A stretch of DNA of 64,000 nt from a virus (IMGVR_UViG_3300026334_000001:1-64000), one strand, 5' to 3'; positions 462 through 57,649 are shown, counted from the first letter of the stretch. Translations and numbers: made by a program. The notes: generated by a model from the sequence alone, not told the origin.

Positions 462-1586
462 ATGATTAACGGAACACTTAACGATAACAAATCAGAAGAA
501 TTTACTTTAGATGCCTCAAATGGTCTTGGTAAATTACTCGGAGCTATCCCTACTGAAAGAGAAGATGTAGCGGATGATGTTGAAGATACTGAAGAAGCAG
601 ATAAAGAAACTGATGATTCAGATGATAAGTCAGATGATAAACCAGATGGCGAAGAAGAAAATAAATCTGAAGATAAAGCCGATAAAGCTGAAGATAAATC
701 AGAAGGTGATAAAGATTCTAATGAGGAAGATGAAACGCTGAAAGAATTTGTTTCTTTATTAGGTATTGATGAAATCGAAGGTGATTTTGAACCTACTCTT
801 GAAGGTATGGCTCAAATTGCTAAACAAGTAGCTGACACTTCTAGGAAAGAAGGAAAGATCGAAGGAATTAAAGAATTGTTCGGTCATATGCCAGTTGTTA
901 AACAGTTGGTAGAACATTTAGCAGATGGCTTATCTATTGATACTTTCTTGAAGCAACAAAATAGAACTGATTGGTCTAAGGTTATTTTAGATGAAGATAA
1001 GCCAGAAGTACTAGAAGCTATTTATAGAAGATCATTAGAAGCTAAAGGAACTGATGCTGATGAAATTGAAGATCTAGTTGAAGTAGCTAAAGATACAAAT
1101 AAACTATATCAAAGAGCAGATAAAGGTAAGGAATTCTTACAGAAGAAAGAAGATGCTCTTATACAAGGAGATATAGATAGAGAGAAACAACTTATTAAGA
1201 AACATCAAGATGAACAAGATGCAATTGTTGCAGAGATTGATTCAATTCTTAATACAGGTAATCTTGCAGGTATTAAACTTGACAAGGCTACTGCTCAATC
1301 GTTGGAGAAGTTTATTTTCAATACTGATGATAAAGGAGTAACAGCTAGAGATGTTAAATGGAATGGTTTAACAAATGAGCAAAGAGTTCTATTGGATTAT
1401 ATTGTAATGAATGATTTCAAACCTCTTGGTATTACAACTGCTGCTAAAGAAAAAGAAGTTAAGAAGATAGTAGCTATTAAAAGAAGTAATGATACCAAGA
1501 AGAAACCAGATATGAATTCATCTAAAAGTGGATCTTCTTCAATGAAGATAAGTTCAATTAAAGATTTATTAGGTAATAATGATTAA
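462..1586 (+). CDS. Acidic scaffold-like head assembly protein (crAss 'gene 77' position)
   Basis: D/E/K-rich low-complexity N-terminus, helical remainder, immediately upstream of MCP. Confidence 0.65.
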   Translation: MINGTLNDNKSEEFTLDASNGLGKLLGAIPTEREDVADDVEDTEEADKETDDSDDKSDDKPDGEEENKSEDKADKAEDKSEGDKDSNEEDETLKEFVSLLGIDEIEGDFEPTLEGMAQIAKQVADTSRKEGKIEGIKELFGHMPVVKQLVEHLADGLSIDTFLKQQNRTDWSKVILDEDKPEVLEAIYRRSLEAKGTDADEIEDLVEVAKDTNKLYQRADKGKEFLQKKEDALIQGDIDREKQLIKKHQDEQDAIVAEIDSILNTGNLAGIKLDKATAQSLEKFIFNTDDKGVTARDVKWNGLTNEQRVLLDYIVMNDFKPLGITTAAKEKEVKKIVAIKRSNDTKKKPDMNSSKSGSSSMKISSIKDLLGNND

Positions 1587-1597
1587 TTTTAAACAAA

Positions 1598-3043
1598 ATG
1601 CGTGGAGTTAAAGCAGAATTTGTACTTACAAAAGACACCTACAGAGAAAAGGATCATTCTTCGGTAACAGAGTTATCAAGAGCGATGCAGAATGAAGGTT
1701 CATGGCTATCTAGTGTAGTAACACACATGAACTACTCTAGTAAGGATTATGGTAAGCAAAACTTTCCGATGTTGATGTTAACAGAGGGAATGGGTAATGT
1801 TAAAAAAGTTAAAGATTTTGATTACAAGTTCCCTGTTATTGGTCGTCCTAAAAAGACATCAAGAGTAGCAAGGAATCTTTATCAAGCAGGTGATAAACCT
1901 GGAGTTGGAAGAAGCAAGTTTGTTATTCCATTCGAAGACAAATTGTTTGCTAATCAACAGACTCTTGTTACAAAAGGAGATGTTCAAGTACGTGTTCAAG
2001 GAGAACCAGAATACAAAAACGGAGCTTATCAATATACCGTTCAATTATGGAATGCTTCTGAAACTGCATTTTGTGCATTGAACTTATTAGCAGAGAGTGT
2101 AGTATGGGCAGGTTCAGTATTTAAGGCTCCTTATGAGGATTCTTATGGTGTTGAATCACGTAGTTACTTAGGTGGTACTGCTACTAATATGACATCACTT
2201 GTTCGTAATAGTTACAAATTAAAAGGTAACGTACAGAATAAGATTATGATGTATACTATCAAGGCTGATGGTAAAACATTTACATATTATACTGATTGGG
2301 AAATGTTCTTAGCAGATCTTGCATTCAAAGAACAATGTGAGTATGATATCTGGACATCTAAATATGGTAGAGATAGCAAAGGTGAGTTTATCATGTATGA
2401 TGAATTGACTGGAGTAGGTATTCCATCTGGTGCTGGTATTGATCCTCAAATTCCAAATAGAGATTCGCATTCAGCGTTGACTTATAAGAAGTTGTCAGGT
2501 TACATTCGTGATATTACATTTAATATTACTGATGCTACAGCTAATGTAGAAATCTGGACTGGTACTGGTGGTATGGAAGATATCAACAATGCATTAAAAG
2601 ATGATTTAAAAGGTTTTGCATTAATTGATAGTAAACAGTATTCAGAAGGTGGTAATAGCTATGATATGGTTTATGGCTCGTACTTCAAAGCATTTAGACA
2701 TCAAGATGGAGCAATGGTTACATTCCGTCATCATCCAATGTTTGATCGTGGTATTCGTGGAGATATTTCAGATATTCATCCGATTAGCGGATTACCAAAA
2801 TCATCACATGACTTGTATATCTTAGATCGTTCAACTTACGAAGGGGAAAACAATTTCCAGTATGTAATGGAAGAAGGTCGTGAGTATACTCAATGGTCAG
2901 TAATGGGATCTATTGTACCTAAAGGATTCAAAGCATCAGATTCTCGTGCATCAGATCGTGACAGTTCATCTGTACATGGTATGAAATCACAAGGTATTCA
3001 GATCATGAAACCTACAGGTTGTTTAAAATCAGAGTGTATCTAA
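1598..3043 (+). CDS. Major capsid protein (crAss-like)
   Basis: 481 aa; motifs such as IPSGAGIDPQI, WTGTGG, YGSYFKAFRHQDGAMVTFRHHPMFD and HPISGLP resemble crAss-family MCPs; codon choice suggests high expression. Confidence 0.9.
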   Translation: MRGVKAEFVLTKDTYREKDHSSVTELSRAMQNEGSWLSSVVTHMNYSSKDYGKQNFPMLMLTEGMGNVKKVKDFDYKFPVIGRPKKTSRVARNLYQAGDKPGVGRSKFVIPFEDKLFANQQTLVTKGDVQVRVQGEPEYKNGAYQYTVQLWNASETAFCALNLLAESVVWAGSVFKAPYEDSYGVESRSYLGGTATNMTSLVRNSYKLKGNVQNKIMMYTIKADGKTFTYYTDWEMFLADLAFKEQCEYDIWTSKYGRDSKGEFIMYDELTGVGIPSGAGIDPQIPNRDSHSALTYKKLSGYIRDITFNITDATANVEIWTGTGGMEDINNALKDDLKGFALIDSKQYSEGGNSYDMVYGSYFKAFRHQDGAMVTFRHHPMFDRGIRGDISDIHPISGLPKSSHDLYILDRSTYEGENNFQYVMEEGREYTQWSVMGSIVPKGFKASDSRASDRDSSSVHGMKSQGIQIMKPTGCLKSECI

Positions 3044-3061
3044 AAATAGGAGGAATTAAAA

Positions 3062-3955
3062 ATGAGCATGGAAAAATATGTTGTTGTAAAACTGAATGAT
3101 AAAAGAAATGTATTCACTACTGTACCTAAATCCATGAGGGACGAGGTAGTTAAAAAGATTGGTTCTTATTTCAAAGAAGGTACACGAGATGTAGCTAGAG
3201 GTTTTAGTCCAGATTTAGAGCGTATTATTATGCCTGATATTATTGGACTACAGCCAAATGAAATGGGCTATACTTCTAAGGTTAGAGATTTTTGGGCTGA
3301 CTTTAGTTTAATTCCTACTGTTGCAGGTGTACGATTGAACATTGCAACTAGAAAAGAGAAAATCAAGATTGGAGATAATGAGGAAGATATTGATATGCCT
3401 GTAAATCCAGATGATTTCATGGCATATCAAATCTGCCTCAATCATCCTCTCATAGCTAAGACAAAAGAGGAAAGAGAAAACTTGGATAACTATGATTACT
3501 ACATGATTGATGAAGCAGAGAAAGAACAACAAGAATTAGATGCTTATGAGATTGTAGAAAAAGCAGATACATTATTTGCTCGTCTAGTTAGTAAGTTTAC
3601 TGAAAACTCTAGTAAGATCAATTGGATCTTAGAATTATTGAAATCAAAAGGAGAGTTCTTCTCTTCAGAGATGGAAGATACTAAGAAAAAAATGATGTTG
3701 CGTAAGAAGAAAGAAGAAGATCCAACATCATTCTACAAAGTAGCTAATGATCCACATCTTGAACAAAAAGCGTTCTTATTGCAATGTCTACAATATGATG
3801 TTCTTACTAAGGAAGGTAATGATTATTACAATCTTGATGAAAACATAGGCAGTGAAAAAGCTGTAATAGCATATCTAGGAAAGACAGAAAAATCGCAAGC
3901 AGTTGCAATTTTGAAATCAAAATTAGAGGCTAAAATGATAACTTCTAAAAAATAA
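3062..3955 (+). CDS. Conserved crAss-like protein downstream of MCP ('gene 75' position)
   Basis: Gene order plus motifs (PVNPDDFMAYQICLNHP, DPTSFYKVANDPHLEQKA). Confidence 0.65.
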   Translation: MSMEKYVVVKLNDKRNVFTTVPKSMRDEVVKKIGSYFKEGTRDVARGFSPDLERIIMPDIIGLQPNEMGYTSKVRDFWADFSLIPTVAGVRLNIATRKEKIKIGDNEEDIDMPVNPDDFMAYQICLNHPLIAKTKEERENLDNYDYYMIDEAEKEQQELDAYEIVEKADTLFARLVSKFTENSSKINWILELLKSKGEFFSSEMEDTKKKMMLRKKKEEDPTSFYKVANDPHLEQKAFLLQCLQYDVLTKEGNDYYNLDENIGSEKAVIAYLGKTEKSQAVAILKSKLEAKMITSKK

Positions 3956-5002: not shown

Positions 5003-5974
5003 ATGTATATAAAAACTATGCATATATTGATTGAGCAGAAACTCCAAAATCTTGGAGTTTTTGCTTATTCAGATATACGACCAGAACAAACAGATATGCA
5101 GATTTATTCTGTATTAATTAAGGAGATTGAATTACTCTTTGATTCTGAAAAGAAAGGTAAAGGGTATGAAGATACAGAAAGAAGAACTGAAAGATTTAAA
5201 GAATTAAAGGTTAAAGATTTTAAAATAACTGCTCTTTATAAAGCAGAAGAATATTATAGTGCTGGATTACCAGATGATTACTATTATCTAATTAGAGATA
5301 GGTCAGAAGTTTGGTATGAATGTTCTCAAAAGAGTATTTTATCTGGAGAGATAGAAAAGAATGTTCCTTATTTAGTCAAGAAAGGAAGTATCACCTATAA
5401 TTCTCTTTCTTTCCTAGAAGGACAAACCTTTGTAGGAGTAACTGGAGTTACTGGTTATGTAGGAACTGGAACAGTTATTAAATTGAAAGTAAATAAAAGT
5501 CCTAATAGATTAACTGATGAAGAAGAATTAGATGATGTATTAATCAATAGTCTTACAAAGACAGATAAATTATTCCCTATTAGTTCGTTAGCGACAAATA
5601 AAATATACGTATACTTTGATGATTTTTTTGTAAATAGTATACAAATTACGTATCTTAAAAAACCTAAACAACCAAATTATAGATTTCCAGTTATTACAAG
5701 TGGAGCTACTTTAGCAGCAGGAAAATATGAAACAATTGAAGGTAATATTGTGGTAGATACTATAACTTTTCAACCATTTCAAAGTTTTGTATCAAATGGT
5801 ACAGTAGTTGTACCAAGTGGAACTAAAGTTAGATTATATAAAGATGGTGATTTGGAAGTTTCTGATGCAGTATGTTATATGTTAATAGATAGAACAGCAG
5901 AAGCAATATCTATTATAACTCAACAAGATCAACAGAAGATTGTTAATATGAAGCAAGATGGTATACCAAGCTAG
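5003..5974 (+). CDS. Putative tail ring / head-tail adaptor protein ('gene 73' position)
   Basis: Start reassigned to ATG 5003 (MYIKTMH); LPDDYYYLI and ITYLKKPKQP motifs are typical of ring/adaptor proteins. Confidence 0.6.
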   Translation: MYIKTMHILIEQKLQNLGVFAYSDIRPEQTDMQIYSVLIKEIELLFDSEKKGKGYEDTERRTERFKELKVKDFKITALYKAEEYYSAGLPDDYYYLIRDRSEVWYECSQKSILSGEIEKNVPYLVKKGSITYNSLSFLEGQTFVGVTGVTGYVGTGTVIKLKVNKSPNRLTDEEELDDVLINSLTKTDKLFPISSLATNKIYVYFDDFFVNSIQITYLKKPKQPNYRFPVITSGATLAAGKYETIEGNIVVDTITFQPFQSFVSNGTVVVPSGTKVRLYKDGDLEVSDAVCYMLIDRTAEAISIITQQDQQKIVNMKQDGIPS

Positions 5975-6464
5975 TTTTAAAGTAAATCAAGAAGGAGATC
6001 CATCTACAATCATTATTGTAGATGACTCTACAAATCCAGGTGGAGAAGTTATTACTTCTAGGAAAGTAGAAGTGACTAAGACAGACTTGGTAGTTGTTAC
6101 ATACAATTTTACAGTTGGTGAAAGTACATTAAGTATAGCAGGATTTGATAAAGATTATGCTCTTGATATTAAGTTTATAGCAACTCCAGCAGTTGTAAAT
6201 GTAAATTCAGTTTATAATGTTACACATCAATTTGCTATGTTGGGCTATTCTCAACAAGGATGGACAGAAAGGCAGATTCAATTAGAAGTAGATGAAGATA
6301 TTTTAGATGTAAGATCATTCATTCAGCAATCAAATGAAATTAAGTATTACATGGATGTAGCTGATAATAGAATACTTTTCTCTGATCTAGTTGGATCACA
6401 ACAAGCTCTTGATTATGTATCAGATCTAATAGGAGCATCAAGTAAAAACATGAAAACTTGTTAA
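5958..6464 (+). CDS. Putative tail hub / structural protein
   Basis: Ig-like beta N-terminus with helical C-terminus; lies between ring and fibre genes. Confidence 0.45.
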   Translation: MVYQASFKVNQEGDPSTIIIVDDSTNPGGEVITSRKVEVTKTDLVVVTYNFTVGESTLSIAGFDKDYALDIKFIATPAVVNVNSVYNVTHQFAMLGYSQQGWTERQIQLEVDEDILDVRSFIQQSNEIKYYMDVADNRILFSDLVGSQQALDYVSDLIGASSKNMKTC

Positions 6465-18876: not shown

Positions 18877-19459
18877 TACAAGAGATGCATTTGATTCCTA
18901 TAAAAAGGAAGGTGGAAAATTAGATTATAAAGTATTTGCTAATATAGTCAGAGAGTTCCATCAAAAGATATCTACTGAAGTAGTTAAAGGATATGAATTT
19001 CAATTCCCATTCCTTCTAGGAAAGTTGAATGTAATTGTATTAAAGCGGAAAATATCATTAAATCAAAATGGTAATATTAAAGGTGGAGTTGATTGGGGAG
19101 AATCCAATAAAAGAAAGAAAGAAATACTAGAAAGAGGAGGAATTCCTCTAGCTATGATTAAGGATGATACTAATAATATTACAGGTAATAATGGTGGTGA
19201 AGAATGGATGTGTTATCATATAACTGATACATTCTATTCTTGGAATCATGTAAAGAATTTATTTCTACCTAATCATAGTAAATATGCTTTTAAAATTTCT
19301 TGGGGTAATAAAAGAGAGTTAGCATTATCAATAACAGAAGATTCAGAGTTATTATATAAACCATATTCGCATGAGTACTACAAAAAAGATCTCAAGTTGG
19401 CACATTATTCAAGAATGCAGTCAAAGATTTCAGATCAAGAACGGGAATTGGTGGGCTGA
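18863..19459 (+). CDS. IHF/HU-like DNA-binding protein of the crAss tail module
   Basis: FQFPFLLGKLNV and VDWGESNK motifs; position just before the tail tubular gene. Confidence 0.65.
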   Translation: MKKFNTRDAFDSYKKEGGKLDYKVFANIVREFHQKISTEVVKGYEFQFPFLLGKLNVIVLKRKISLNQNGNIKGGVDWGESNKRKKEILERGGIPLAMIKDDTNNITGNNGGEEWMCYHITDTFYSWNHVKNLFLPNHSKYAFKISWGNKRELALSITEDSELLYKPYSHEYYKKDLKLAHYSRMQSKISDQERELVG

Positions 19460-31400: not shown

Positions 31401-34400
31401 TAGCTAATCAAAGAAAGAGTAATCTAGAACAAGAAACTACTAACTACCTCCAGATGTTAGAATCTGGAGATGTAGTTGGAGTAGCGGAAGTAGAAAGTGA
31501 ATTAGCAGAAGTTAATAGTCAAATAGAAGAACTTAATCATCAAATCTCCTTAATGGAGAAGTTAAAGGATGAAGGCAATAAATTCCTTTCTTTCCTAGAA
31601 GATTTATGGAAGAAAGCTTTTCCTAATAAACGTAGACAATTAGAAAAAGGTCGTCAAGAATATACTGATGTTAAAGAAGAGATTCAATTAAGTAAGCAAC
31701 AATTAAAACAACTTGATGAAAACATAGCTAATACATCTACTATTTTAACTCAACTTAATAATAGATCAACTGTTTTACAGAATGAAATAACTCAATATCA
31801 ATTAGCAGCAAGAGCATTCTCTCCTGTAATTAATACTAAAACAGAAGAAGGAGTTCAGAATAAAGCTAATCCAGTAACAGAAGATCAAGAAGGTATTACT
31901 TATAATTCAGCTAGAAATCCTGATGTTAGTGGAGCATTTACTTTTAGAACTACTGGTTTTCATGGTAACGATAAAACAGGTCTTAATCCAAAAGAATCAC
32001 AAAGAAGATGGTTTAAATGGGCAGAAAGAACACCTCTCTCGGAATTAAAGAATCTAAAATTAAGAGTTGTAACTATTAATGATGAAACTTATGGAACAGG
32101 GAAGATTAACGACCTTTTTCGGGACGAACCTATGGAGTACAAGACAGAACACGATCTTAAAGTTGTGGTTGTTGACTCAAGGGGAAATGCGATTGACTAT
32201 ATGGGAGGACCAGTTCATACGAATCTCTTATTGCCAAAGGATAATGTAAGTGATTATAAATATGGAGATGGTTCATCTATGTTTATTAATAAGACTGGTA
32301 TGAGTGATGCTGCTATTAAAGAGAAGAATGATACATATAAGAAATTCACTCAATCTTTAAAAGATGCCAAAGAACCAGTATATCTAGAGATTACAGGAAA
32401 ATCTAATGGAGTTAAAGCTAGAGGAGAAAGAACTTCTATTAGAGAAGTTTTTGGAACTGAAGATATTAATCTTCAAGTTGTAACTAGTGAAACTATTACA
32501 ACTGCTGATGGTACTTCAATAAGTGCAAGACCTGGAACTGTTATTACTATAGTTGATGGAAGAGTTACACCATTATTGACTAGAAAATTAAGTTCAGAAG
32601 AGGGCAGTAAAGTATTAGATTTACTTAAAGATTATTCTAAATTAAGAGAGAATAAAAAAGCTAATGCTAAAGAACTTAAAGATGGATTGAGTCAGTTAAA
32701 ATCAATTGTCTTCATGGGAGATACAGCAGATCCAGCTACTTCTATGGGATTTGTGACAGGAGAGAATAATTTTAAGTTTGGAAACGCTCTTATTAGTATT
32801 AAGGAATTACAGTCAGGAGAATTCGATCCACAAATTAGAGCTTTCTTAGAAAATAAATACCATCAAGTTAGTAATGATTGGTTGAAATCAAAAGCATCAT
32901 ATGAAGATGTATTTGGTAAAAAATGGAATTCTTACAAAGATTATTTAATTGGAGAAAGAGATAATCCATTAGATGCTCCACTTACTAGTGATTTAGTTCC
33001 TGTTACTGATGATATTAATAAACCATCATTCTATAGTACATATGTAACTTTTGGTACAGATATTAAAAATTCACCTAAAGCTGAAACTAAATCAACTAAA
33101 ACTAACGTATCTATTCCTGTATCAACTGTTAATGAAGAAATTCAAAATAGAGATGAACAAGTAGTTCCAGTTAAGAAAAGTATCTTTAAAAAGAAACAAG
33201 CCTCTCCTGTAGTTGAAACTAAATCAACTAATCAAGTAACTGTTATAACTGAAGATACTTTATTAGAAGAACCATCTTATGAACCAACATTTGAACCTCC
33301 TACTGGAACAGTTCAAAAGTTTGCAGATGTTATTAAAGGAAAACCTGTAACTGAAGTAAAAGCTCCAGAAGCAGAATTAACTGATGATGATATTGAAGCT
33401 ATGATTGAAGCTTCATTTACTCCTAAGAAGAAAGAAGAAGTTGTAATGGGAGTTGTTCCTGTAGATCCATCTGATTTATTTTTAGATGCTACAAGAATAT
33501 CAGAAAATTATGTTAAAGAAGATACAGGTAAAGCACAAGCATGGTTTAAACAAAATATAGGTGAAAATGTACCATTCCATTTAGTTAATGGTCTAGTTAA
33601 TCAAAGAGCTTTCGGAATGTTTAGTAAACATGGAGAAGTTCTTATATCTGATTTAGCAGTTGAAGGTACAGTATATCATGAATCATTCCATGCAGTTACT
33701 CAATTAGCTTTAGGTAAAGATGAACGTAAAGCTTTATATGATAATTATAGAAAAACTAGAAATGTAGATCTTTCAGATAGAGATGTAGAAGAAGAACTTG
33801 CAGAAGAGTTTAGAACTTACATGCTATCTCAAGGAGAATATAAAATACCAGAGGCTAATTTCTTTAAGAGATTATGGAATGCTATTAAGAAAGTAATTGG
33901 TATTCCACAAGATAAAATTGAAGAGCTATATAAAAATATATCTACTGGAAAGTTTAAAGGTTTAACAGCTAAAGAACTTGATGGTGGTAATATATATTCA
34001 TCAATATTATCAGATTATTCAGTTTCATTTGCTAAAGAACTGATGGAAGGAATGACGACATACTTTATGAGGAATCTATTTAAAAATGGATTCTCTGTAA
34101 AGGATATAGTAAAATTTCAAGAAGATACTTTAAGTAAAGATAGTGCAGATAGAATAGCAGGTACATATAATAATATTCTATCAAATATTGCTTTCATGTG
34201 GTCAGATGAAAAACTGGCTGGAATGGATAAAGATACTGCACAAGAGTTTAAAGATTCAAGAAACTTTGTAACAGCTAACTGGAAAGGTATTGTTCAAGAA
34301 CATAATACCTATATGCAGAGATTTGGTATCAATATGAGTTTTGAAGATACTATTTATAGTTCTGTTACTGAAGAAGATAGAAATAAAGATACATTAGGTA

Positions 34401-37400: not shown

Positions 37401-39964
37401 AAGCAATGGAAGTATATTTACCTCATTACTTTAAGGAGTATTTTGATAAGAATATAGATATTAATGATTTACCAGAAGAGTTAAAGAACTTTGTAGGTTT
37501 TAGGATTCCAACACAAGGGTTGAATTCAATTGAAGTAATCAAGATCAAAGGATTTCTTCCACAAGAAGCTGGTAATATCATCATTACTCCATCAGAGATT
37601 GTTACAAAAGCAGGTTCCGATTATGATATTGATAAATTGACAGTATTCTTCCCTAACTATAAAGTAAACTATGATATGAAGCAAATGAGAAATGATTTTG
37701 CTAGATATGTAGTAGGTACTGGAGGAGAAGTTAGTGGAGAAGAATTAACTAATTTAAAATCAATTATTGATAAAGGTAAAGAAGAAGATTCTGATGACAT
37801 ACTTTTAGGAACTCTTCTAGGAGAAAAGGATAGGAATGTATATCAACAGTTTAAGGAGTTCCAGAAAGAGATGAAACAAGATTATGTTTCTGGAGTTGAT
37901 TATATTAAATATGAAGAAGGAACTAACGATAAGAAAGCTATTCAGAATGAGATTATCAAAATGGCTTCTGACATGGTATCTGCTCCAGAAAACTTTGCTG
38001 GTTTGATGACTCCCAATTCTACAGATATTATTAAAGGTGCTGCTAATGAAGTAAGAAAATTAAAAGGATTAGATCAGAAAGAAGCTGCTACAATTGATAA
38101 TTTAACTGACTGGTCTTATAACTTAGATGTTAGAAGTAAATACCTATTAGGTAAAGCTGGTATTGGTCATACTGCATTACAAAACGTACATCATGTTCTT
38201 AGTCAAATTGCAGATCTTACAGTTAGCAATCCTGATGTTAAAATTGAATTAGATCATAATCTTAAAGATGGTAAGATATTTTTAGGAGGTATTTATGATG
38301 CTAATAATAAAACTGATAGTAAATCATATAAGACAATTCTAGATGTAATATCTGAATTTGCCAATGGTTTCTTAGACGTAGCAAAAGATCCTTTCTTAAA
38401 GGATATTAATGCAAACGTAGAAACAATTAATACTTATATGTATTTAATCAGAGCTGGAGTACCTGTTAGACAATCAGTTCTTTTCATGACACAACCAATT
38501 ATTACAGATTACTTAGAAGCATTAGAGAAAAATGATTCATTATTCTTGAAGAATGTAGAACAACAGAAATCTAAAAAACAGTTAAGAACTGAAGTTGAAG
38601 CTAAATATAAATCTACTGCTAAGATTGGAGATTATAAAGCTGCTATCAGTGAAGCTAACTTAGCTAAGTATCTTAAAGGAGATGTAGATAATGCAGTTCA
38701 ATTAAGAATACTTTCTGATTATTTTGCTTATAAAGAACAATCAGATAAATTAGGAGATCTAGTAAATGCTACATCTCAAGATACCAGAGGTACAGGTGCT
38801 TCAATGACAGAGGCTCAATTAGTTCAGAATAAATATAATGAAGTTGTTAAAGAAAAATACTTTGATAATATTCAAGAATTTATGAACCAGACCTTTCTAG
38901 GATCGTTTAAAAAATCTGTGGATTTATCTTTGTCTTTATATCAAGATTTATTCATCACCGAGCGACCAGAAGTTAAGTCATTTTTCAATCAATTAACTAT
39001 GCAGTTACCAAAAGTGATGAAACAAGATACAAGGGTGAAATTATTGAATATGATGAAGAATGATTTTATTCAATACATATTCCAAAACTCTGCATCTAGT
39101 TATAAAGATCAAAAAGGTAAGACAGTTGAAGGAGGTAAATTAGGTTATAGAACAAGAGAGTTTTTTGCTGGAACAGATTCAATTCCTTATAAAGTTGCAG
39201 AGATTAAGAGAGATAAAACTAATCCTCTTCATGATAATCTTCTTATTAATGAGTTGTATGTAATTACTGGTAATAGTAAAGAATCTACAAATGTAACTAC
39301 TGAAGGAACTAATAACTTAAAATTATTTAATAAAAGAATGCCTGTTGATGATAGTAATAGACTAACAGAAGCATGGAAGGAAATATTTGATACAGATAAA
39401 ACTTTTGGTGATACTTTATTAAAATTTAGTATATTGCAGTCTGGATTAAATAGTAGTCCAATTAGTTTCATGAACTTTGCTCCTAATGATGAATATATTA
39501 GAGTTGCAAAACAAGTGATGGAAGCTTGGTCAGATTCTCCTATGACAGCAGATTTTCTGGAGATGTACTATCAAAACAATTACAAAAGTAATGATTTAGT
39601 TCCTAATGTAAAAAGAGTGGAGGTTAGAAATGGTATTGCTAAAATTAGTGATATAAGATATACTAATTCTCCTTACATTAAAACTTGGATTAAAACTACT
39701 GCTAACAAAGGATTCTTTAGATTATTGAAGAACACTAATACACAAGTAGATAATAATACAATCTTTGAAGAAATAGATAAGAGAGGAAATGGATATCAAT
39801 TCAAAGAATTTACTACTGGAATTGGAACAATGTTAGTAGATAATAAAGCAGGTTATAATCCTAGAGTTCAAGAAAAGACTAAAGACGATTATAAAGTTAG
39901 TTATACACCTCCATTTGACACTAAAGATGTTCCTTTGGAAGAAGTAAATAAATGTGGAATATGA
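28415..39964 (+). CDS. Giant virion RNA polymerase polyprotein (hydrophobic N-terminus, coiled coil, zincin, two-barrel RNAP)
   Basis: GFRIPTQG and GSDYDIDKL (DxDxD at 37619-37633), DEADAQGY and GTQFRK motifs; HESFH zincin motif near 33677. Confidence 0.9.
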   Translation: MSKKRSLPQAPIDYTNPSDEDIARGLKQYGVSPYLTPARPESAIEYGTDVSQYGTGLIGEKGGEGFITAPEEQFQDIAAQNQGAGSMLLRGTGRLLGGAAMKTLEGFSLLGSGVLGGIYDATGLDQAIGGKEMTWDDYVDNPVNNTLFKAEDWMKSKMQIYKPSDWNSKSFLEQVSSGAWWADEGSDAAAFALSTLLPAGLLGDAGIGAKMMGTVGEGAGMIDEAGQVLNSGTKVAKALNGGAKALNKVSQALNFGEVGMLNLPKTAGTIDNLVTNALMTTSEALFEARDTGQQMKQEVVKKWNETYPNQKVSDFEELPDQVKQTEKEKMSGNQRDTFLANLAALSFTNKFETALLNKFGSQTAKAGLKALEVSDELLTPAARLTKKGISGFFENTGLKSALKEAATGAFMEGILEENIQSAIQNVSQHYSGNGKDNWFLDALDYTGDVVKGSFDNLSDQEAWKSIGSGMVIGALSGVIGGFKEHRQEVKDANHVAGRLNEATNNFLNVGNALYERIPVIDEQGNPTGATKIKLDQEGNPLYNNEALNRFMANQAMVSSLESIADLYQSTGNEEIASYVKNEAFSKWAQAHLESGLGEEMYAKLKKLGTMKDTDLLQSNIPITTVQGEKVSSQAIANQYIAKAKELEADYRQISKTIPAEQSGRIDNAYQTKSRLRELGKLKDALNLKLGDYQNKIRSGNDTVDLINRKVTQLEASKAQSEFFVNASGENAQAYLSSLDRLEKEITQLKADNKDMLQDQGHDVTPGIEPIPYQTAGMFKSDFQDYTKTNDKLAAIEGGSAELMDHYNGVIDYKNGEEFYNNYLNQGVAGHNLKSELEKAVTEQQAVVDRQEEDQWREFQDNLKQGDFLETPTEQGYVAKDADGNLTFNNRIITPAVLRALQPTKVSEADVALRKQEALDNTRRNQMQARVTGNLQDISVLNDAIRRGEDGLLNNQIELEKLINKSNGKANSTQNQIAKQIEAVKGTIDEIQSGLDVANQRKSNLEQETTNYLQMLESGDVVGVAEVESELAEVNSQIEELNHQISLMEKLKDEGNKFLSFLEDLWKKAFPNKRRQLEKGRQEYTDVKEEIQLSKQQLKQLDENIANTSTILTQLNNRSTVLQNEITQYQLAARAFSPVINTKTEEGVQNKANPVTEDQEGITYNSARNPDVSGAFTFRTTGFHGNDKTGLNPKESQRRWFKWAERTPLSELKNLKLRVVTINDETYGTGKINDLFRDEPMEYKTEHDLKVVVVDSRGNAIDYMGGPVHTNLLLPKDNVSDYKYGDGSSMFINKTGMSDAAIKEKNDTYKKFTQSLKDAKEPVYLEITGKSNGVKARGERTSIREVFGTEDINLQVVTSETITTADGTSISARPGTVITIVDGRVTPLLTRKLSSEEGSKVLDLLKDYSKLRENKKANAKELKDGLSQLKSIVFMGDTADPATSMGFVTGENNFKFGNALISIKELQSGEFDPQIRAFLENKYHQVSNDWLKSKASYEDVFGKKWNSYKDYLIGERDNPLDAPLTSDLVPVTDDINKPSFYSTYVTFGTDIKNSPKAETKSTKTNVSIPVSTVNEEIQNRDEQVVPVKKSIFKKKQASPVVETKSTNQVTVITEDTLLEEPSYEPTFEPPTGTVQKFADVIKGKPVTEVKAPEAELTDDDIEAMIEASFTPKKKEEVVMGVVPVDPSDLFLDATRISENYVKEDTGKAQAWFKQNIGENVPFHLVNGLVNQRAFGMFSKHGEVLISDLAVEGTVYHESFHAVTQLALGKDERKALYDNYRKTRNVDLSDRDVEEELAEEFRTYMLSQGEYKIPEANFFKRLWNAIKKVIGIPQDKIEELYKNISTGKFKGLTAKELDGGNIYSSILSDYSVSFAKELMEGMTTYFMRNLFKNGFSVKDIVKFQEDTLSKDSADRIAGTYNNILSNIAFMWSDEKLAGMDKDTAQEFKDSRNFVTANWKGIVQEHNTYMQRFGINMSFEDTIYSSVTEEDRNKDTLGIINNFEFSTRDGMPNSVKLLFAALPSLDKDGKVATNAIGLHGISDYTANQRLLQNKLSNVSDFKEQVSIIKDLMKVRPEFKYLLQYLGVQDDNETPSTAGSDIFDLQMAFRQQFDKAKYSPQIIIYDEGTIKTVDADDDRIVNAISTEWQNNLKAKLSTANIPSIQTNDLGQLVYNADYLVNKYFKPSTVKKGRLVLKDAGKESLLSFYKDLGIEFSDKDNIDYGKLADKSYFIMNSIQSHPEELNLFAKPHNLRGDLASLLEEEVKSRDDLSDNQHINPEGKTVYSISLNNYLSQTVNVLNRVIPDHLKWNEKDRIGNPFVRNSQWGKKFAAGNKMKLVMLEGAGIAEAGTDAKMADDLTRGDTGSVQFQKVLDGVYPLLQPGDKKLAYGFSFGEEISPKMKYEEMVSQLKGYLSDELLSSWMLNVEGIGADVKNYKSLGKDLRSFKGAITGYEQLIKKKVSRQTILNHIENFVNSDEVTKQVEKWFDNKVDKNIEELKNYQTIKESKLGVFTLLGISEETAEKYAGKKNNLSTQEMKDLVKFFTYGSLHGNIEQTKLFTGDTAFYEFTSKKVDFFKRVSGLIGTGKTAAIGEQINNWFNTNFKQQYIDRDGKIVDGKVSDGKINTVVFNDVKIAAENYNGLLSTMDSLGYDKEYSRGLMKAYSESADEADAQGYITMPEYREFLKRTGDWKDSHEVAYQKMLKGDRLTKEDIYRFPPLKPQYFGNQQYGELYVPTFYKFSVMPLIPQVISDIKANGLKDLMDQMHEQQIGIATFTSGNKVGVVNTHDFYDENGNVKQQTYTPQVVGYEGMKIQLDISPEVKDKVTFGTQFRKLVLMNLKGNSLTIDGKKVDGNELIKKYSGLIDKLIQIDTENLTKKLGIEKKGDKYKINNVKYLKETLVEESVRRGVASNLIEGIEQVFDADKPYMDLLVTRNKMENILMSMVNNNLIKQKMFGDMKVQGASTGFEQTARKQSSVNDQAWASNLEALKFYDFKDGKTQAMEVYLPHYFKEYFDKNIDINDLPEELKNFVGFRIPTQGLNSIEVIKIKGFLPQEAGNIIITPSEIVTKAGSDYDIDKLTVFFPNYKVNYDMKQMRNDFARYVVGTGGEVSGEELTNLKSIIDKGKEEDSDDILLGTLLGEKDRNVYQQFKEFQKEMKQDYVSGVDYIKYEEGTNDKKAIQNEIIKMASDMVSAPENFAGLMTPNSTDIIKGAANEVRKLKGLDQKEAATIDNLTDWSYNLDVRSKYLLGKAGIGHTALQNVHHVLSQIADLTVSNPDVKIELDHNLKDGKIFLGGIYDANNKTDSKSYKTILDVISEFANGFLDVAKDPFLKDINANVETINTYMYLIRAGVPVRQSVLFMTQPIITDYLEALEKNDSLFLKNVEQQKSKKQLRTEVEAKYKSTAKIGDYKAAISEANLAKYLKGDVDNAVQLRILSDYFAYKEQSDKLGDLVNATSQDTRGTGASMTEAQLVQNKYNEVVKEKYFDNIQEFMNQTFLGSFKKSVDLSLSLYQDLFITERPEVKSFFNQLTMQLPKVMKQDTRVKLLNMMKNDFIQYIFQNSASSYKDQKGKTVEGGKLGYRTREFFAGTDSIPYKVAEIKRDKTNPLHDNLLINELYVITGNSKESTNVTTEGTNNLKLFNKRMPVDDSNRLTEAWKEIFDTDKTFGDTLLKFSILQSGLNSSPISFMNFAPNDEYIRVAKQVMEAWSDSPMTADFLEMYYQNNYKSNDLVPNVKRVEVRNGIAKISDIRYTNSPYIKTWIKTTANKGFFRLLKNTNTQVDNNTIFEEIDKRGNGYQFKEFTTGIGTMLVDNKAGYNPRVQEKTKDDYKVSYTPPFDTKDVPLEEVNKCGI

Positions 39965-42900
39965 ATTGTATCTTAACAGCACATCCAACTTATAAAGCAC
40001 TTGTAGAAGCTGGTTATAGTAAAGATCTAATTAATAGGGCTTGGTATCTAATAAATACCAAGTCTTTTAATGATTGGTATGGTGAAGGTAATAAACATCA
40101 AGATGATAATAGTCCAATCATTACAAAAGATCTTAAAGTAATAAATGAAACTGGTCAAGCAGTTTCTCTTGATGATATAGTTGGTTATGGTTTTGTAACT
40201 GATGTAAAAGATATCAAACAAAAGTTGAAATATCCTAATTCTCCTTTTAGATCAGATGAAAGAGAGAAGTATCGTTTATTTAAACAAGAAGATTATAAAC
40301 AAGCACTAGCTGTTGCTGCTAAGATTAATACAACTTGGGATAATGTAAAAGCTAATGTAGAAAGAGCTGTTGGAGAAAAAGGAGATCAGAGAAACTATTT
40401 TAGAGTTGTTCTATATGATAACTTTAATAAAGATGAAGCTTTTCAACAACGAGAAGATGTAAAAGAAGTTACTAAACAATGGGATAAACAACTTGATGAT
40501 AAGATGAAATCTTATCTTAATAAGTTGGGAATTTCCTATGAAGGAGTAAAAGCTATTTATGATAAGGCAACTGGAGAAGAAATTCCTGCTATTGCTGTAG
40601 CTGATATGGTTAATAAAGTAGTTAAAGTAGTTGAAGGAAAAGCTGGTATAGATACATTACCAGAAGAAACTGCTCACTTCTTTGTGAAGATGATTGAAGG
40701 ATCTCCTCTTTATAATTCAATGTACAATGAGATTACGAATTTTGATGTATATAAAGAAGTTGTTAATGATTACTCTGAATTATATAAAGGTAATGATAAG
40801 CAACTTAGAGAAGAAGCAATTGGAAAGATGATATCTCAACAAATTGTAAATCAATTTGAAGATGCTAAAAAAGATAGAGCTGATAGATGGTGGAATAGAG
40901 TTTGGAAGCTTATAAAAGAAAAAGTTTTAGGTATAGATTCTAAACAACTACAAGATGATATTACTAATCTTGCTCCATTTAGTGATGCAGCTAAACAAAT
41001 ACTTGAAGAACAAAAAGTAGATAGAAGAGAAACCAATCCTTCTTTCCTAGAAGAAAAAAGTGAGCAGGAATATTATCAGTTAGATAAGCAAGATAAAATA
41101 GTAAAAGCTATTACTGATACTCAAATTGCATTAGATAGTTCTACTGATAAATATTTCTATATGGAAAATGGAAATAGAGTTGAAGTTAGTAAACGTGTTT
41201 CAGATAGAGTAAAAGAAGCTAATATTAAAAGAGGTTTTGGTAAATTTAGTGAGGCACAAAAAGAGAAATTTACAAAGTATGCTATAGCTGGAACAAGAGG
41301 ACATGCAGATTTAGCTAATATAATTGATAGAATAACAGCTGAAAAAAATGGGCAACTTATACCATCTAAAACAAATTTATCTGGAGAAAATGTATATAAT
41401 ATTCTAGAAAATTGGATGAAAGATTTTATATCTAAATTTCCAGCAGGTACTAAATTTCTTTCAGAACAATCAATTCTAGATAAAGCTGCTAGTGAAGCAG
41501 GTACAATGGATTTACTAGCTATTAGTCCTGAAGGAGTTGTAGATATCTATGATTTTAAGTTTATTAACTTTGAGAATAAAACAGAGATTCCTTGGAATAA
41601 AGAGGAAGATTATAATATTCAATTAGGAAGATATAAACAAATTCTTAAAGAAAGATATGGAGTTAAAGAGTTTGGTAAATTAAGAATCTTACCAGTTGCA
41701 GCTACATATTCAGAACAACATGTTCTTAAATCTATAGAAGTTAATAAACAGATTGTTCCATTAGAAGGAAAGAAAGCTTATCTTAATCCATTACCTATGT
41801 TTGATGAAATGACAGGTAATGAAGATAAAGATAGATTACTTCAAGTGGCTCTTAAAGATAGAGAAAGATTGTTAGGAATGCATCCAAAAACAGCAGAAGA
41901 AACAGAGTATAAACAAGATAAGCTAAAGAGAATTAATAAAGCTATTAAGGAAATACAATTAACAGGCAATATAAAAGAATTTATTAATAATGCTCTATAT
42001 ACTCTTAATAAAGTAAGAGATACAGGATTTGAGAAATTAGATGGTAAACAATTTCATGCTTTTCAAGATGAATTAACTTTTTATTCTAATTACTTAATAG
42101 ATAGTATTGGAGATGAAATGGATAAATTAGATAAAGATACTAAAGATGCAATTTCAAAAGTAGTATCTAATTCTCAGTTAATGTTAAAACATGCTACTAA
42201 AGAAGTATCTAATAGATTAAAAGGTTATTTTGGAGATGATATAGAAACTCCTCAAAAAGAATCGGGTCTTTGGACTAGAATGTTTAGAACTTTGAGTCAG
42301 CAAAACCATCCTAAAATAGCAGCATTCTATAAATTGGTTCAAAAATCAATAGAAAAAACAAGAAAAGCTCATGATGAATTAAATGATAATATAAGAAAAA
42401 CTGTAGATGCATTAAAAGAATTCCAAAAAGGAAAAGGAATAACTGGAACAGATGTTTTTAATTATATGCTCACTAAAAATAATAAAGGTGGGTGGGATAT
42501 GATCTCTAAATTTAATCCTGAATCATATAAAACACTTAATTCTTATAGAGAAAAAGGAGGTGAAGATGCTCTAAGTTGGATAAAGAAAAATATGACTTTT
42601 AATCAAACTGCATATAATGAAACTCTTAATGAAAAAAAGAGAATCTGGAAAGATATGTATAAGTTTGATGATGATGCTGTAGGTAAATTTAATGAAAGAG
42701 TTAAACAATTTGAAAATAAATATGGTAATAATGATAAAGGTTTAATCAATAATAAAGATAATAAATTTCTATCTTTTAAAGATGATCATTTATCAAAAGA
42801 GTATAAGAATATATATGCTACAGGAAATGAAGCATTAAAGAATTTCTATGAATTATTTCATAAAACTTCATCAGATTTTCAAGATTATACAGGATTGACA

Positions 42901-53542: not shown

Positions 53543-54528
53543 ACTAACTCGTATTTTGCTTCTTCTATTAAATCTAACATATATTGCAGACCATAGTGCT
53601 TGCAGTGATCTGTAAAATCCTTTGGTTCTGACTGCCTTCTAAATAAACCATTTGATTCAAATAGCAAAGGTTTAGTACCATACGTTTTTCTCATTATTTG
53701 AGCCATTCTCATTCCAGCTCTATCTCTATCAAATAGCGAAAAAACATTAAAAAATCTATTCTCTAAGCCACAATACTCCTTCTCTCCTATAAGGATTGAC
53801 TCTGCTGCTGGAGCAAGTGATGGTATTTCAAATCCATCAAGAGCCATCACATCTTTATATGACTTAGTTATTAGAAGACTCTCTCCTTCTTCTGGTAATT
53901 GATCCCATCCTTCTAAAATATCTCCAGTTGCTTGAATGAATTTAAAGAACTTCCTTTTTGGAAAATATAATTTATATCTGTACTCTCCAAAATGGTATGC
54001 ATAACCAGGATCTTTTTCTACATAATTATAGCTAAGATTACCATTTATCCATGCCATATCTAAAGGATACACATTAAATTTAGCTAAAGCAGCTTCACTT
54101 ACAAAATTATCTCTCCAAAACTTAATATCTGCTTTTGACCATCCTCTACGTTTAATACGTATTTCTGTATTCTTCCTAACTCTTTTATGAACTTCTTCTA
54201 GGAAAGAAAGTGGTTTGTAGTCAATATTTGTTCTTGATAACTGAAAGTCATTAGCTATGATTTCTAATGCTTTAAAGAAGTTAACTCCAAATAATCTCTG
54301 CACTACATTGAAGCAATCTATATTATCTCCTCTTGCAAAATCTTTAAATTTAAGAAGACCTCTTGAATCAAAATAGAATCTGCAATCTGCATGATTATCT
54401 GACCTCAAAGGATTACGAAAATAATCATGAGTATTAGGAAATAACCCCAAATACTTAAAGAATATATCTTCTTGGGAAATCCTATTTAATATAAACTCTC
54501 TTGTAATATCTTCTTTATATTCAAACAT
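53539..54528 (-). CDS. DNA primase (crAss-type, TOPRIM)
   Basis: NPLRSDNHADC, FKDF, LLITKSYKDVM, FDRDRAG and KDFTD motifs. Confidence 0.9.
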   Translation of the reverse strand: MFEYKEDITREFILNRISQEDIFFKYLGLFPNTHDYFRNPLRSDNHADCRFYFDSRGLLKFKDFARGDNIDCFNVVQRLFGVNFFKALEIIANDFQLSRTNIDYKPLSFLEEVHKRVRKNTEIRIKRRGWSKADIKFWRDNFVSEAALAKFNVYPLDMAWINGNLSYNYVEKDPGYAYHFGEYRYKLYFPKRKFFKFIQATGDILEGWDQLPEEGESLLITKSYKDVMALDGFEIPSLAPAAESILIGEKEYCGLENRFFNVFSLFDRDRAGMRMAQIMRKTYGTKPLLFESNGLFRRQSEPKDFTDHCKHYGLQYMLDLIEEAKYELV

Positions 54529-54540
54529 TTATTAGAAATT

Positions 54541-54567: not shown

Positions 54568-54573
54568 ATTAGA

Positions 54574-55170: not shown

Positions 55171-55224
55171 AATTATAAGATTTAAATTTTTAAGATATTA
55201 TTTTAAAATGGAATTTTTCTAAGG

Positions 55225-55257
55225 AAAGAAAGGGGAACCAATTTAATGATTCCCCTT
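55225..55257 (-). terminator. Intrinsic terminator
   Basis: AAGGGGAATCA...TGGTTCCCCTTTCTTT on the minus strand. Confidence 0.7.
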
Positions 55258-55280
55258 GTTTAATAAATATGATTTAACTA

Positions 55281-55850: not shown

Positions 55851-55908
55851 GACATTTTTGTTTTAAGGGTTTATAAAATATTTGTTTCTGTTTGTTATTT
55901 ACAATAAT

Positions 55909-55940
55909 CAAAGATACAAAACTTAGCTTGTATCTGCAAA
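55909..55940 (-). promoter_or_regulatory. Consensus Bacteroidota promoter (TTTG-N20-TATCTTTG) with an overlapping inverted repeat
   Basis: Exact -33 and -7 elements; AGATACAA (55912-55919) / TTGTATCT (55928-55935) palindrome. Confidence 0.8.
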
Positions 55941-55968
55941 AAAATTTAAAAATAATTACAACTACTAT

Positions 55969-56688
55969 CTAATTGCCGTAATCTTCTAAAATCCTATCTA
56001 CTATCGTTTGATAGTTATTTGAAATTTCATACTGTTCCCAATAACCTTGAGGACTTCTAGCTGTATTATATCCAGAATTTGCAGTAGTTAATTTATACCT
56101 ATTTACATCTGTATGTGGTAAATTAGCATCAACTTTTGTATAATAGGTATGAGAAAGATTCAATCCTTCAACTCCTAATTTGGTAGCCATTTTACCTAAG
56201 ATTCTTAATCTTTGTCGGATTTCTCCAGCTTCAGCTTTATAATCTTCAATATGACCATTAATAAAAATAATTAAAGTACCTTTTCTTTTACCATGAATAC
56301 CAAAAATTTGCTTCTTTACTGTTTCATAGTCTTCTACTTCCTTATAATTCTTTTTACTATTATCAATTGGATATTTATTTCTAGCTCCAAAGAAAGTTAA
56401 TGGTTTTCCATCAGCATTTAACCAAGCCGTTTCTTCTGGATTTAAGAAAGAACCTCCTACTGTCTTCCCCGTTCCTTCATGTCCCAAGACTTGAACCAAA
56501 ACCACATCATCAAGTCTTTTCATCCAATCATAAAGATCTAGTATTTCAGTACCGTAATCTCTCCACATATCGTAGTTAGCTTTACCTACATCCTTTAGAT
56601 GTCTTAAATACAGCTTATTTTGTACACCATTTATGGTATCCAATATTATACTTCTGTATTTCTTGTCATTCATTACTATTTCACTCAT
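55969..56688 (-). CDS. AAA_24 / Sak4-like P-loop ATPase with permuted segment order
   Basis: GHEGTGKT, LNPEET, GKPL.F, GKM and TARSPQG motifs; the IILDT Walker B block lies N-terminal of Walker A. Confidence 0.75.
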   Translation of the reverse strand: MSEIVMNDKKYRSIILDTINGVQNKLYLRHLKDVGKANYDMWRDYGTEILDLYDWMKRLDDVVLVQVLGHEGTGKTVGGSFLNPEETAWLNADGKPLTFFGARNKYPIDNSKKNYKEVEDYETVKKQIFGIHGKRKGTLIIFINGHIEDYKAEAGEIRQRLRILGKMATKLGVEGLNLSHTYYTKVDANLPHTDVNRYKLTTANSGYNTARSPQGYWEQYEISNNYQTIVDRILEDYGN

Positions 56689-56689
56689 T

Positions 56690-57649
56690 TTAATAATCTT
56701 CTATTTGATTAAATCCTAAATTATGACGCATCATTAGATTTCCTGTCCATCCATCTCTTTGTTTGAGAATACATTCAATCATTAAATGATCATATTGATC
56801 TGGATTGTTTGGATTAATACCAGTTGGAATATCTTCCCATGATGTAAGACCATAAAATCCAGGTCTATGTAGAGCCATCACTATATCAGCACATTGAAAA
56901 ACACTATCCGATCCGAATATATCACTAGAAACTGGAGTATTCTTTCCAATATCATCTCTACCTCTAGCTCCAGATTCAATATTTCTATTCATCTGACTCA
57001 AAAAGATATTGATATGTTCATAATCATTCTTAATTTTCATTCCTGCCATCATAAACTTAGATATTAATTGTTCTTCTGATCCTTCATTATCTCTTGATAC
57101 TAATCTTGTATGATCTACAATATTAACAATGGTATGTTTAGGATACTTATTTGTAATCTCTATCTTTTGTTTCTTCCAAGCATTTACTGATTGTGATATT
57201 TGACTCATATAAATTGGATATCCTTTAAAAGAATCACCAATTAACTTTAATCTTGTAAACTGTTCTTCTGTTATTGTATTTTGAAAATCCAATAATTGTT
57301 TTACAGTCATTTGAGCTTCTCTACTATACATCCTTAATACTGATCTAAAATCAGCCATCTCCCATGTATCATACAGAATTATTAGTTTGCCATTATAATG
57401 AGGATTAATTCTTGGATCTACAAAGTCGCGCATCATATGTATAACCTTTGCAGTTTTACCCATACCAGTTCTAGCTGCTAAAACCATCTGATCTGTTGGA
57501 TACAATCCTCCAATCTTTTCCTTTTCTTTCCTAGAAGAAGTAACTAGAGGCTTTAACTTACCACTTCTAATTAATTCAATCCTTTCATTAGTTTTATCAA
57601 CTACTTTTGAAATGTGATTGTAATTAGTAGATTCTAGGTTTAACTGCAA
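56690..57649 (-). CDS. DnaB-like replicative helicase
   Basis: LAARTGMGKT, VDHTRL, LSQMNR, SDIFGSD...ADIV...HRP and KQRDG motifs. Confidence 0.9.
   Translation of the reverse strand: MQLNLESTNYNHISKVVDKTNERIELIRSGKLKPLVTSSRKEKEKIGGLYPTDQMVLAARTGMGKTAKVIHMMRDFVDPRINPHYNGKLIILYDTWEMADFRSVLRMYSREAQMTVKQLLDFQNTITEEQFTRLKLIGDSFKGYPIYMSQISQSVNAWKKQKIEITNKYPKHTIVNIVDHTRLVSRDNEGSEEQLISKFMMAGMKIKNDYEHINIFLSQMNRNIESGARGRDDIGKNTPVSSDIFGSDSVFQCADIVMALHRPGFYGLTSWEDIPTGINPNNPDQYDHLMIECILKQRDGWTGNLMMRHNLGFNQIEDY

Follow-up and report, generated by a model that had tools for sequence, protein, structure and literature searches.

Why is one 14-base word, TTCTTTCCTAGAAG, repeated letter for letter inside genes of both orientations in a phage genome? 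The question was raised by an initial annotation of the viral record IMGVR_UViG_3300026334_000001. The window, which is the whole stretch of DNA analyzed, comprises the first 64 kb (positions 1 to 64,000) of this phage genome (G000), which is 90,052 bp long and can be regarded as a circular assembly because a terminal repeat of 127 bp is found at the record ends. Our analysis indicates that the word is very probably a selected, strand-specific signal at the level of DNA.

The eight exact copies of the 14-mer that had been reported for the window were all recovered at their positions and on their strands, and four of them extend to a common 16-mer (CTTTCTTTCCTAGAAG, four occurrences in the whole genome). 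No copy of the 14-mer was generated in 100 dinucleotide shuffles. When up to two mismatches were allowed, 15 matches to the 14-mer were obtained, compared to 1.61 on average, and never more than 5, in the shuffled sequences. The 12-mer CTTTCCTAGAAG is present in 10 copies in the whole genome, and at every length from 11 to 16 the word ranks first among the strand-symmetric k-mers of G000. Mapping over the whole phage, including the region from 64 to 90 kb outside the window, revealed 17 copies of the 9-base core TCCTAGAAG, nine on the plus strand and eight on the minus strand, whereas an order-3 Markov model predicts 1.7 copies. Six of the 17 lie outside the window. The absence of the word from 64 to 90 kb is therefore only apparent and true just for the strict 12- to 14-mer, because relaxed copies occur there. 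The partial copies that had been proposed were also real. Those at 6055 and 19013 contain the 12-mer, the one at 3874 contains a 10-mer (CTTTCCTAGA) that extends to the 11-mer TCTTTCCTAGA, and the variant at 55218 carries an extra T. As had been suggested, the word is found in both the structural and the replication modules. The copies, with the open reading frames (ORFs) in which they lie, are as follows:

838..851, minus strand: exact 14-mer, antisense in ORF 462-1586, read as TSRKE.
3874..3884, minus strand: partial copy TCTTTCCTAGA, without the final AG, probably decayed.
5407..5420, plus strand: exact 14-mer, sense in ORF 4901-5974, read as SFLE.
6055..6068, minus strand: copy with the exact 12-mer core, TACTTTCCTAGAAG, antisense in ORF 5958-6464.
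19013..19026, minus strand: copy with the exact 12-mer core, AACTTTCCTAGAAG, antisense in ORF 18863-19459, read as LLGK.
24633..24646, plus strand: exact 14-mer, sense in ORF 24043-26505, forming the left arm of two convergent copies separated by 50 bp.
24697..24710, minus strand: exact 14-mer, antisense in ORF 24043-26505, read as LLGK, right arm of the convergent pair (predicted fold of region 24625-24720, -31.8 kcal/mol).
31588..31601, plus strand: exact 14-mer, sense in the ORF of 3,849 amino acids at 28415-39964, read as SFLE; an X4 contig covers it and shows no difference.
37814..37827, minus strand: degenerate copy TTTTCTCCTAGAAG with the core TCCTAGAAG intact, antisense in ORF 28415-39964.
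41040..41053, plus strand: exact 14-mer, sense in ORF 39952-44760, read as SFLE; an X3 contig covers it and shows no difference.
54195..54208, minus strand: exact 14-mer, sense in the primase gene 53539-54528, read as SFLE; variable linker, no insertion or deletion (indel).
55215..55234, minus strand: variant copy CTTTCTTTCCTTAGAAA with one extra T, between ORFs 54574-55170 and 55281-55850.
57524..57537, plus strand: exact 14-mer, antisense in the DnaB-like helicase gene 56690-57649, read as SSRKE.
Outside the window (genome positions, from the search of G000 with TCCTAGAAG): core copies at 67393 (minus), 67811 (plus), 76779 (plus), 80733 (plus), 82939 (plus) and 84892 (minus).

Alignment of the 17 core copies defined the extent of the word. 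It consists of a pyrimidine tract, the invariant TCCTAGAAG and, usually, a purine, and it is asymmetric. A T at position -1, before CCTAGAAG, is invariant in all 17 genomic copies. Upstream of the core lies a tract of about 10 bases that is poor in G and rich in pyrimidines, with only C or T at positions -8, -7 and -4, and the base 3' of the core is a purine in 15 of the 17 copies. Approximately 17 to 19 positions of the word are informative. The quasi-palindromic core that had drawn attention initially is not the conserved feature, given the asymmetry of the word and a spacing rule that holds strand by strand. The conservation is graded in nested steps, strongest in the 3' core and decreasing toward the 5' tract: 9 bases are common to 17 copies, 10 to 12 copies, 12 to 10 copies and 14 to 8 copies. 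No flanks longer than 16 bases are shared; no 18-mer containing the word was seen twice, and the only 18- and 20-mers seen twice belong to a different repeat. Judged from these sequences, the copies decay in the manner of a recognition site whose core is strict and not in that of a copied element, whose flanks would be shared. All 17 core copies are located within ORFs, and none was found upstream of a gene start.

To separate constraint on DNA from constraint on protein, synonymous codons were shuffled within each of 106 ORFs, which preserves the proteins and the codon usage of each gene, and whole codons were permuted in a second control. The maximum 14-mer count ranged from 2 to 5 in 99 of 100 synonymous shuffles, with a single run reaching 8, and from 2 to 4 in all 100 codon permutations; the observed count is 8. 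In a second series of 60 shuffles, nine top 14-mers reached a count of 4 or 5. Six of these were (CAA)n or poly-A and three were ordinary-looking, which leaves room for either type of word in the lone outlier. The core gave a clearer separation: 17 copies of TCCTAGAAG were observed, compared to a mean of 0.94 (maximum, 3) in 150 synonymous shuffles and a mean of 0.51 (maximum, 2) in 150 codon permutations. The word thus survived the codon-shuffle check that had been proposed for it.

The reading frames point in the same direction. Two of the six frames of the word contain TAG, and three of the four open frames are in use. SFLE is encoded by five sense copies, T/S-SRKE or SRKV by three antisense copies and LLGK by two antisense copies, which agrees with the translations given earlier (SFLE five times, TSRKE, SSRKE and LLGK). 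Relative to the surrounding gene, eight of the 17 copies are sense and nine are antisense, as counted from the copy list; computed calls of sense or antisense cover 13 of the 17 copies. The codons used by the word are uncommon, with CTA accounting for 13% of Leu, AGG for 9% of Arg and TTC for 25% of Phe codons. Of the seven occurrences of SFLE in the predicted proteins, five are written with exactly the codons of the word. A protein motif is ruled out by the three frames, both orientations, the rare-codon identity and the shuffles, and the view that protein-level selection is unable to explain the word was borne out.

Sequencing or assembly could also have produced a repeated word. A contig of approximately 89.95 kb was assembled in two runs of two studies, and short contigs were obtained in two further runs of two further studies. 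All four runs are labeled soil metagenome, and two of them may be the record's own source. Over positions 22001 to 42000 of the window, the contigs from the four runs contain no differing letter. An adapter or assembly artifact is ruled out by these identical contigs, which carry the word unchanged, the evidence consisting of contigs and not of raw or spanning reads. No contig ends at a word were found between 22001 and 42000, contigs being incapable of revealing nicks. As a side observation, low-depth short contigs from runs X1 (200 nucleotides) and X4 join window positions 32244-32264 to 37744-37767 inside the gene for the 3,849-amino-acid protein. These contigs skip 5,479 bases, with 13 other letters in between, and may represent a repeat or another organism.

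Spacing was evaluated with all 17 copies, without selection, against 20,000 random placements. Neighbors on the same strand are 2.2 to 19 kb apart, with about 10 to 11 kb being typical. The mean coefficient of variation (CV) of the per-strand gaps was 0.465 (P = 0.002), and the smallest same-strand gap was 2,206 bp (P = 0.03). When strand was ignored, the CV was 0.743, which is not unusual (P = 0.16). Copies on opposite strands lie as near to each other as 58, 418 and 642 bp, although such pairing (3 of 9 within 700 bp) was not significant (P = 0.08). Because evenness was observed per strand and the copies are divided into eight sense and nine antisense, the reader of the word probably works on single DNA strands in turn, without regard to transcription.

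How the copies arose can be judged where homologous proteins align. At the primase site, the word encodes PLSFLEE in a linker. Forty aligned primase homologues that are 46 to 54% identical, compared over query residues 88 to 130, showed no gap at the word; none of the 40 contains SFLE, and their residues at this place are unrelated. Similarly, no five-residue gap relative to the relative G001 was detected at the primase, helicase or 18863 sites. These gap-free alignments indicate that the copies were written by substitution into protein stretches that tolerate change. The footprint of an insertion or of a miniature inverted-repeat transposable element is ruled out where homologues align (primase, helicase and 18863) and by the absence of shared flanks. 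One site behaves differently. P0247, a piece of the giant protein found in another data set (721 amino acids, 99.4% identical), stops matching at the first codon of the 37814 copy and then continues with DR..., residues that the window has five codons further on. The break could be a 15-base indel or the bad or chimeric end of a contig. For the protein of 820 amino acids, searched with regard to the inverted pair of copies, most matches showed only a short conserved segment, amounting to about 10% of the query. The peptides are kept in strain variants that are nearly identical (about 99% at the amino acid level), a comparison that has no statistical power.

Regarding affiliation, the capsid protein matched phrog_11589 (major head protein) with an E value of 5e-60. 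A tblastn search with it returned 65 phage records, and the 30 listed were mostly Crassvirales or unclassified gut-phage records at 22 to 30% identity. G000 also has the giant ORF of 3,849 amino acids and a two-armed gene layout. On its sequence, it is assigned to the crAss-like phages as a soil lineage. No tRNA or tmRNA was found by ARAGORN in the 90-kb genome. The masked 12-mer TTANNATCTTTA, present in 20 copies in G000, may be a Bacteroidota-type promoter box.

The nearest relative compared was G001, which comes from a metagenome of marine sediment and whose capsid protein is 67% identical. The exact 12-mer was absent from 10 relatives (G001 and nine others at 44 to 47% capsid identity), and no comparable word was detected in G001, G003 or G010 by k-mer, Markov-enrichment or masked 12-mer screens. 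In these three genomes, the top words (CATCCCA-type) run with the gene strand and resemble Trp-Asp codons. Capsid homologues at 68 to 78% identity exist on long contigs, some of them 66 to 91 kb in length; the word comparison covered relatives at 44 to 67%. When 185,579 prokaryote species, each represented by one genome, were scanned with a 17-mer, at least 120 matches were obtained, and the 80 listed were all single hits in scattered taxa, which represents a weak negative. Likewise, a 14-mer scan of viral contigs gave single matches only among the 80 matches listed. The mapping in relatives and candidate hosts that the initial annotation had called for was therefore answered in part, with the word absent from 10 relatives and no multi-copy bacterial genome among the matches listed. 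The word appears to be private to this phage lineage. Its absence from relatives, together with only scattered single bacterial hits among the matches listed, suggests that the reader is likely specified by the phage.

A word with related properties is found in gut crAss-like phages. The pattern YYYTACGGGGG occurs in 26, 14, 6 and 5 copies in four Intestiviridae genomes and is absent from one Suoliviridae genome, with no matches in reversed-sequence controls. The genome with 14 copies is that of crAss002, a cultured phage of Bacteroides xylanisolvens. In the gut phage cr110_1, TACGGGG occurs 36 times (17 and 19 by strand), with the consensus TCCTCTACGGGGGGTC. Its per-strand CV was 0.487 (P < 5e-5, as none of 20,000 random placements was as even), and the strand-blind value was P = 0.05. 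The same spacing test with the TACGGGG core was not significant in crAss002 or CrAssphage LMMB. When the present word is read on the purine strand (CTTCTAGGAAAGAA), it displays pyrimidines, TA, one base and a purine run, as in the gut word. A degenerate pattern, YTYTANGRRRGR, matched 13 times in G000 (control, 3) and 21, 33 and 9 times in three Intestiviridae genomes (controls, 4, 1 and 2). It was not enriched in four word-less genomes, with 4, 1, 2 and 4 matches (controls, 10, 3, 4 and 4). A spelling reported for a lake phage, TTCCCCAATAGARG, would have TTC and TAGARG in common with the present word. We infer that the present word is the local spelling of a strand-specific, evenly spaced crAss-like word.

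Two proteins had been named as candidate readers, and neither was supported. The protein at 18863, proposed to be IHF-like, had no Pfam match at an E value of 0.01 or less and matched only a PHROG of unknown function; its homologues are present in G001, G003, G010 and cr1_1, which lack the word. The protein at 47018 (82 amino acids), proposed to be AP2-like, had no AP2 match, only a sub-threshold match to ThiI_fer. Hence, the recognition-site interpretation of the initial annotation held with respect to a DNA-level signal in both modules, but not with respect to the palindromic core and the readers it named. The DNA enzymes encoded by G000 include an ATP-dependent ligase, a family A polymerase with 3'-5' exonuclease, a primase and two helicases. 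Enzymes that are relevant to the following discussion are located as follows:

49730-50749: PD-(D/E)XK nuclease.
58380-59777: helicase.
60546-61523: LAGLIDADG endonuclease ORF (PF14528, E value of 4e-11).
Genome 64369-65217 (L144:369-1217), minus strand: free-standing GIY-YIG endonuclease with NUMOD3 motifs.
Genome 81029-81667 (L144:17029-17667), plus strand: free-standing GIY-YIG endonuclease.

With two GIY-YIG enzymes and one LAGLIDADG enzyme, three homing-type nucleases are encoded in a single 90-kb phage. An insertion of about 1.2 kb, containing the LAGLIDADG ORF, interrupts the gene at window positions 59986-61905 (minus strand); in G003 and G010, the halves of this gene are adjacent and in one frame. 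A search of positions 44000 to 64000 against Rfam (E value of 0.1 or less) gave no match, and hence no group I intron was found at this insertion. The word as a homing target of the LAGLIDADG enzyme was rejected, since the sequence of the exon junction is unlike it. A profile of gene presence and absence over eight genomes singled out no gene and was uninformative at the sensitivity of tblastn. A nucleotide-metabolism cluster was also noticed, comprising a ThyX-like protein of 318 amino acids (51223-52179), a dNMP kinase (48330-48950), a member of the UDG superfamily (47665-48357) and MazG (45659-46222). Such a gene set might be a hint of base modification in the DNA of the phage.

We propose that the word is very probably a selected cis-acting DNA signal of the phage, written through genes irrespective of frame and transcription. 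A sequence-specific factor that the phage specifies would read it strand by strand, with a stringency like that of a nuclease. The most likely act would be a strand-specific nick or the start of DNA synthesis (priming) during replication or genome processing. Nicking or priming is favored because the rule applies per strand and independently of transcription and because nick-processing enzymes are encoded. This reading as a whole, a selected, crAss-type, strand-read site with nicking or priming, is put forward tentatively and falls somewhat short of an even balance. A strict per-strand word that is kept at a rare-codon cost in essential genes would imply a process that tracks single DNA strands. 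A broader proposal is that all Crassvirales, whether from gut, lake or soil, share a step of genome handling in which a fast-evolving phage factor reads, at regular intervals on each strand, a lineage-specific word built of pyrimidines, TA and purines, and nicks or primes there. We consider this doubtful, though conceivable. If it were true, the G-run of the gut spelling would be dispensable, and a lineage could respell the whole set by point substitutions inside genes.

A number of observations weigh against nicking or priming at a crAss-type site. Even spacing depends on the relaxed set of 17 copies; for the exact 12-mers alone (n = 10), the per-strand CV was 0.658 (P = 0.28), a sample without power. 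It should also be noted that spacing was examined with the expectation of evenness, derived from crAss-like phages, already in mind. Alternation of strands (12 of 17) was not significant (P = 0.16). The proposed act is deduced from sequence, and contigs bear no record of nicks, primers or binding. Two opposite-strand copies are only 58 bp apart, and nicks at both of them could lead to a double-strand break. Homologues of the primase, helicase and polymerase are present in G001, G003 and G010, and since these genomes have no comparable word, the core replication proteins would be insufficient as readers. The pattern YTYTANGRRRGR was designed after both words had been seen, so that its distribution indicates compatibility and not homology. 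Out of four cr110_1 sites in alignable G000 proteins, one coincides with a G000 copy, at ligase amino acids 93/94, in the opposite gene-relative orientation. This coincidence, between the weakest G000 copy (genome 67393, in the ligase gene 66482-67681) and position 69055 of MT774386.1, may be due to chance. A primase site that is common to three Intestiviridae, at the equivalent of G000 amino acids 230 to 237, has no counterpart in G000. More generally, among the 10 relatives and the four testable cr110_1 sites, no relative was found that keeps its own spelling at the same gene positions. Localized single-strand interruptions with associated motifs are a feature of T5 and phiKMV-like phages. 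The nick motif WACTRTGAC of Rembedalsseter/tf resembles the present word in being a short, asymmetric, lineage-enriched and strand-specific word inside genes (PMC11780129). It has 9 bases, is confined to one strand and is unevenly distributed, being concentrated on one side of the genome, whereas the present word has about 17 to 19 informative positions and is evenly spaced on both strands (9 plus, 8 minus) (PMC11780129).

Other mechanisms could generate or maintain such a word. A Chi-like signal, at which a translocating helicase-nuclease of phage or host is switched from degradation to recombination or protection, would limit the loss per break. An asymmetric, strand-specific word that is even on each strand and present in near-equal numbers on both would suit such an enzyme, and the phage encodes the PD-(D/E)XK nuclease and the helicase listed above. 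However, a Chi-like role is unlikely in view of the approximately 17 to 19 informative positions, the absence of the word from relatives, the single scattered bacterial hits among the matches listed, and the homologues that both enzymes have in word-less genomes. Architectural or partition sites, to which a phage DNA-binding protein docks to organize, condense or segregate the genome, would explain why a strict word is dispersed genome-wide and also inside genes. A phage-plasmid lifestyle has been proposed for the prototype crAssphage in a preprint (PMC10983915), and G000 encodes a protein with a borderline match to RepL (20.2 bits; cut-off, 20.3). Docking should be independent of strand, yet evenness was observed only per strand (P = 0.002 versus 0.16). 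In addition, no ParA, ParB or other DNA-binding family was found among 57 distinct proteins, a scan that covered about half of the ORFs and left aside mainly short ones lacking homologues, and we regard sites of this kind as quite unlikely.

The copies might instead be a functionless by-product of short-patch gene conversion, templated repair or small mobile-element footprints, by which the 14-mer spread recently. Eight letter-perfect 14-base copies with few intermediates, their confinement to one lineage and the possible 15-base indel at 37814 fit this explanation. The primase, helicase and 18863 sites show no indel, though, no flanks are common beyond 16 bases, and neither the nested decay nor the even same-strand spacing is expected from random copying; as a result, we judge it improbable. 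A signal in transcription (a promoter, pause, terminator or stoperator-like site for the host or virion RNA polymerase) has precedents in the dispersed asymmetric repressor sites of Cluster A mycobacteriophages. For the virion polymerase of the crAss-like phage phi14:2, no promoter motif was found in a preprint that also reports promoter-motif hits, 17 of them in coding regions (10.1101/2020.03.07.982082). All 17 copies in G000 are within ORFs, eight sense and nine antisense, with none upstream of a gene start, and the regularity lies in their spacing and not in gene position; a transcriptional role is accordingly very improbable. There is practically no chance that a protein motif, coincidence or an assembly or adapter artifact accounts for the word. 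The five sense copies do all encode (L/P)SFLE(G/E/D), and the word was picked post hoc, but the shuffles, the three frames, both orientations, the rare codons and the identical contigs in four runs argue against each of these.

CrAss-like phages are among the most abundant viruses, and their DNA replication and processing are largely unknown. A signal such as the one proposed here would provide experimenters with a handle on these processes, and for annotators it is an example of DNA-level constraint that mimics a protein motif (SFLE). In a partial literature search that did not cover supplements, no description of a dispersed intragenic word in crAss-like phages was found; the hit list for phi14:2 may bear on this point. 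Several well-characterized systems are comparable. Chi sites, which are read by RecBCD or AddAB as moving enzymes, are asymmetric sequences of 5 to 8 bases that are host specified and abundant in the host chromosome. The present word is likewise asymmetric and located inside genes, but it is longer, phage-private and not enriched in bacterial genomes among the matches listed. DNA uptake sequences (DUS) and uptake signal sequences (USS) of competent bacteria are words of 10 to 12 bases that occur about once per kb throughout the host genome, inside genes and sometimes as inverted pairs. Both orientations inside genes are common to them and the word described here, which differs in that no bacterial genome had more than one hit among the matches listed and in its absence from related phages. 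A host-wide word, whether DUS- or Chi-like, was rejected on the basis of the scattered single bacterial hits among the matches listed, a weak negative. Stoperators are asymmetric 13-base sites, present in dozens per Cluster A genome, that are bound by the L5 repressor gp71, mostly intergenic and oriented with transcription. They resemble the present word as asymmetric dispersed sites, whereas the latter is intragenic and oriented without regard to transcription (8 sense, 9 antisense). Further parallels of dispersed sites are the centromere sites of prophage N15, the C1 operators of P1 and the bacterial matS and SlmA sites.

The word of the gut Intestiviridae shares with the present one its crAss-like carriers, an asymmetric arrangement in which a block of pyrimidines is followed by TA and a run of purines, a location inside genes, similar numbers on both strands, per-strand evenness (in cr110_1) and close opposite-strand pairs. 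The two differ in spelling (TACGGGGGG compared to TCCTAGAAG here) and, with respect to cr110_1, in number and density, with 36 copies at about 5 kb per strand versus 17 copies at about 10 to 11 kb. What appears to be new in the present case, as far as sequence can tell, is the distant soil lineage, the A-rich spelling and the direct evidence that copies were made by substitution.

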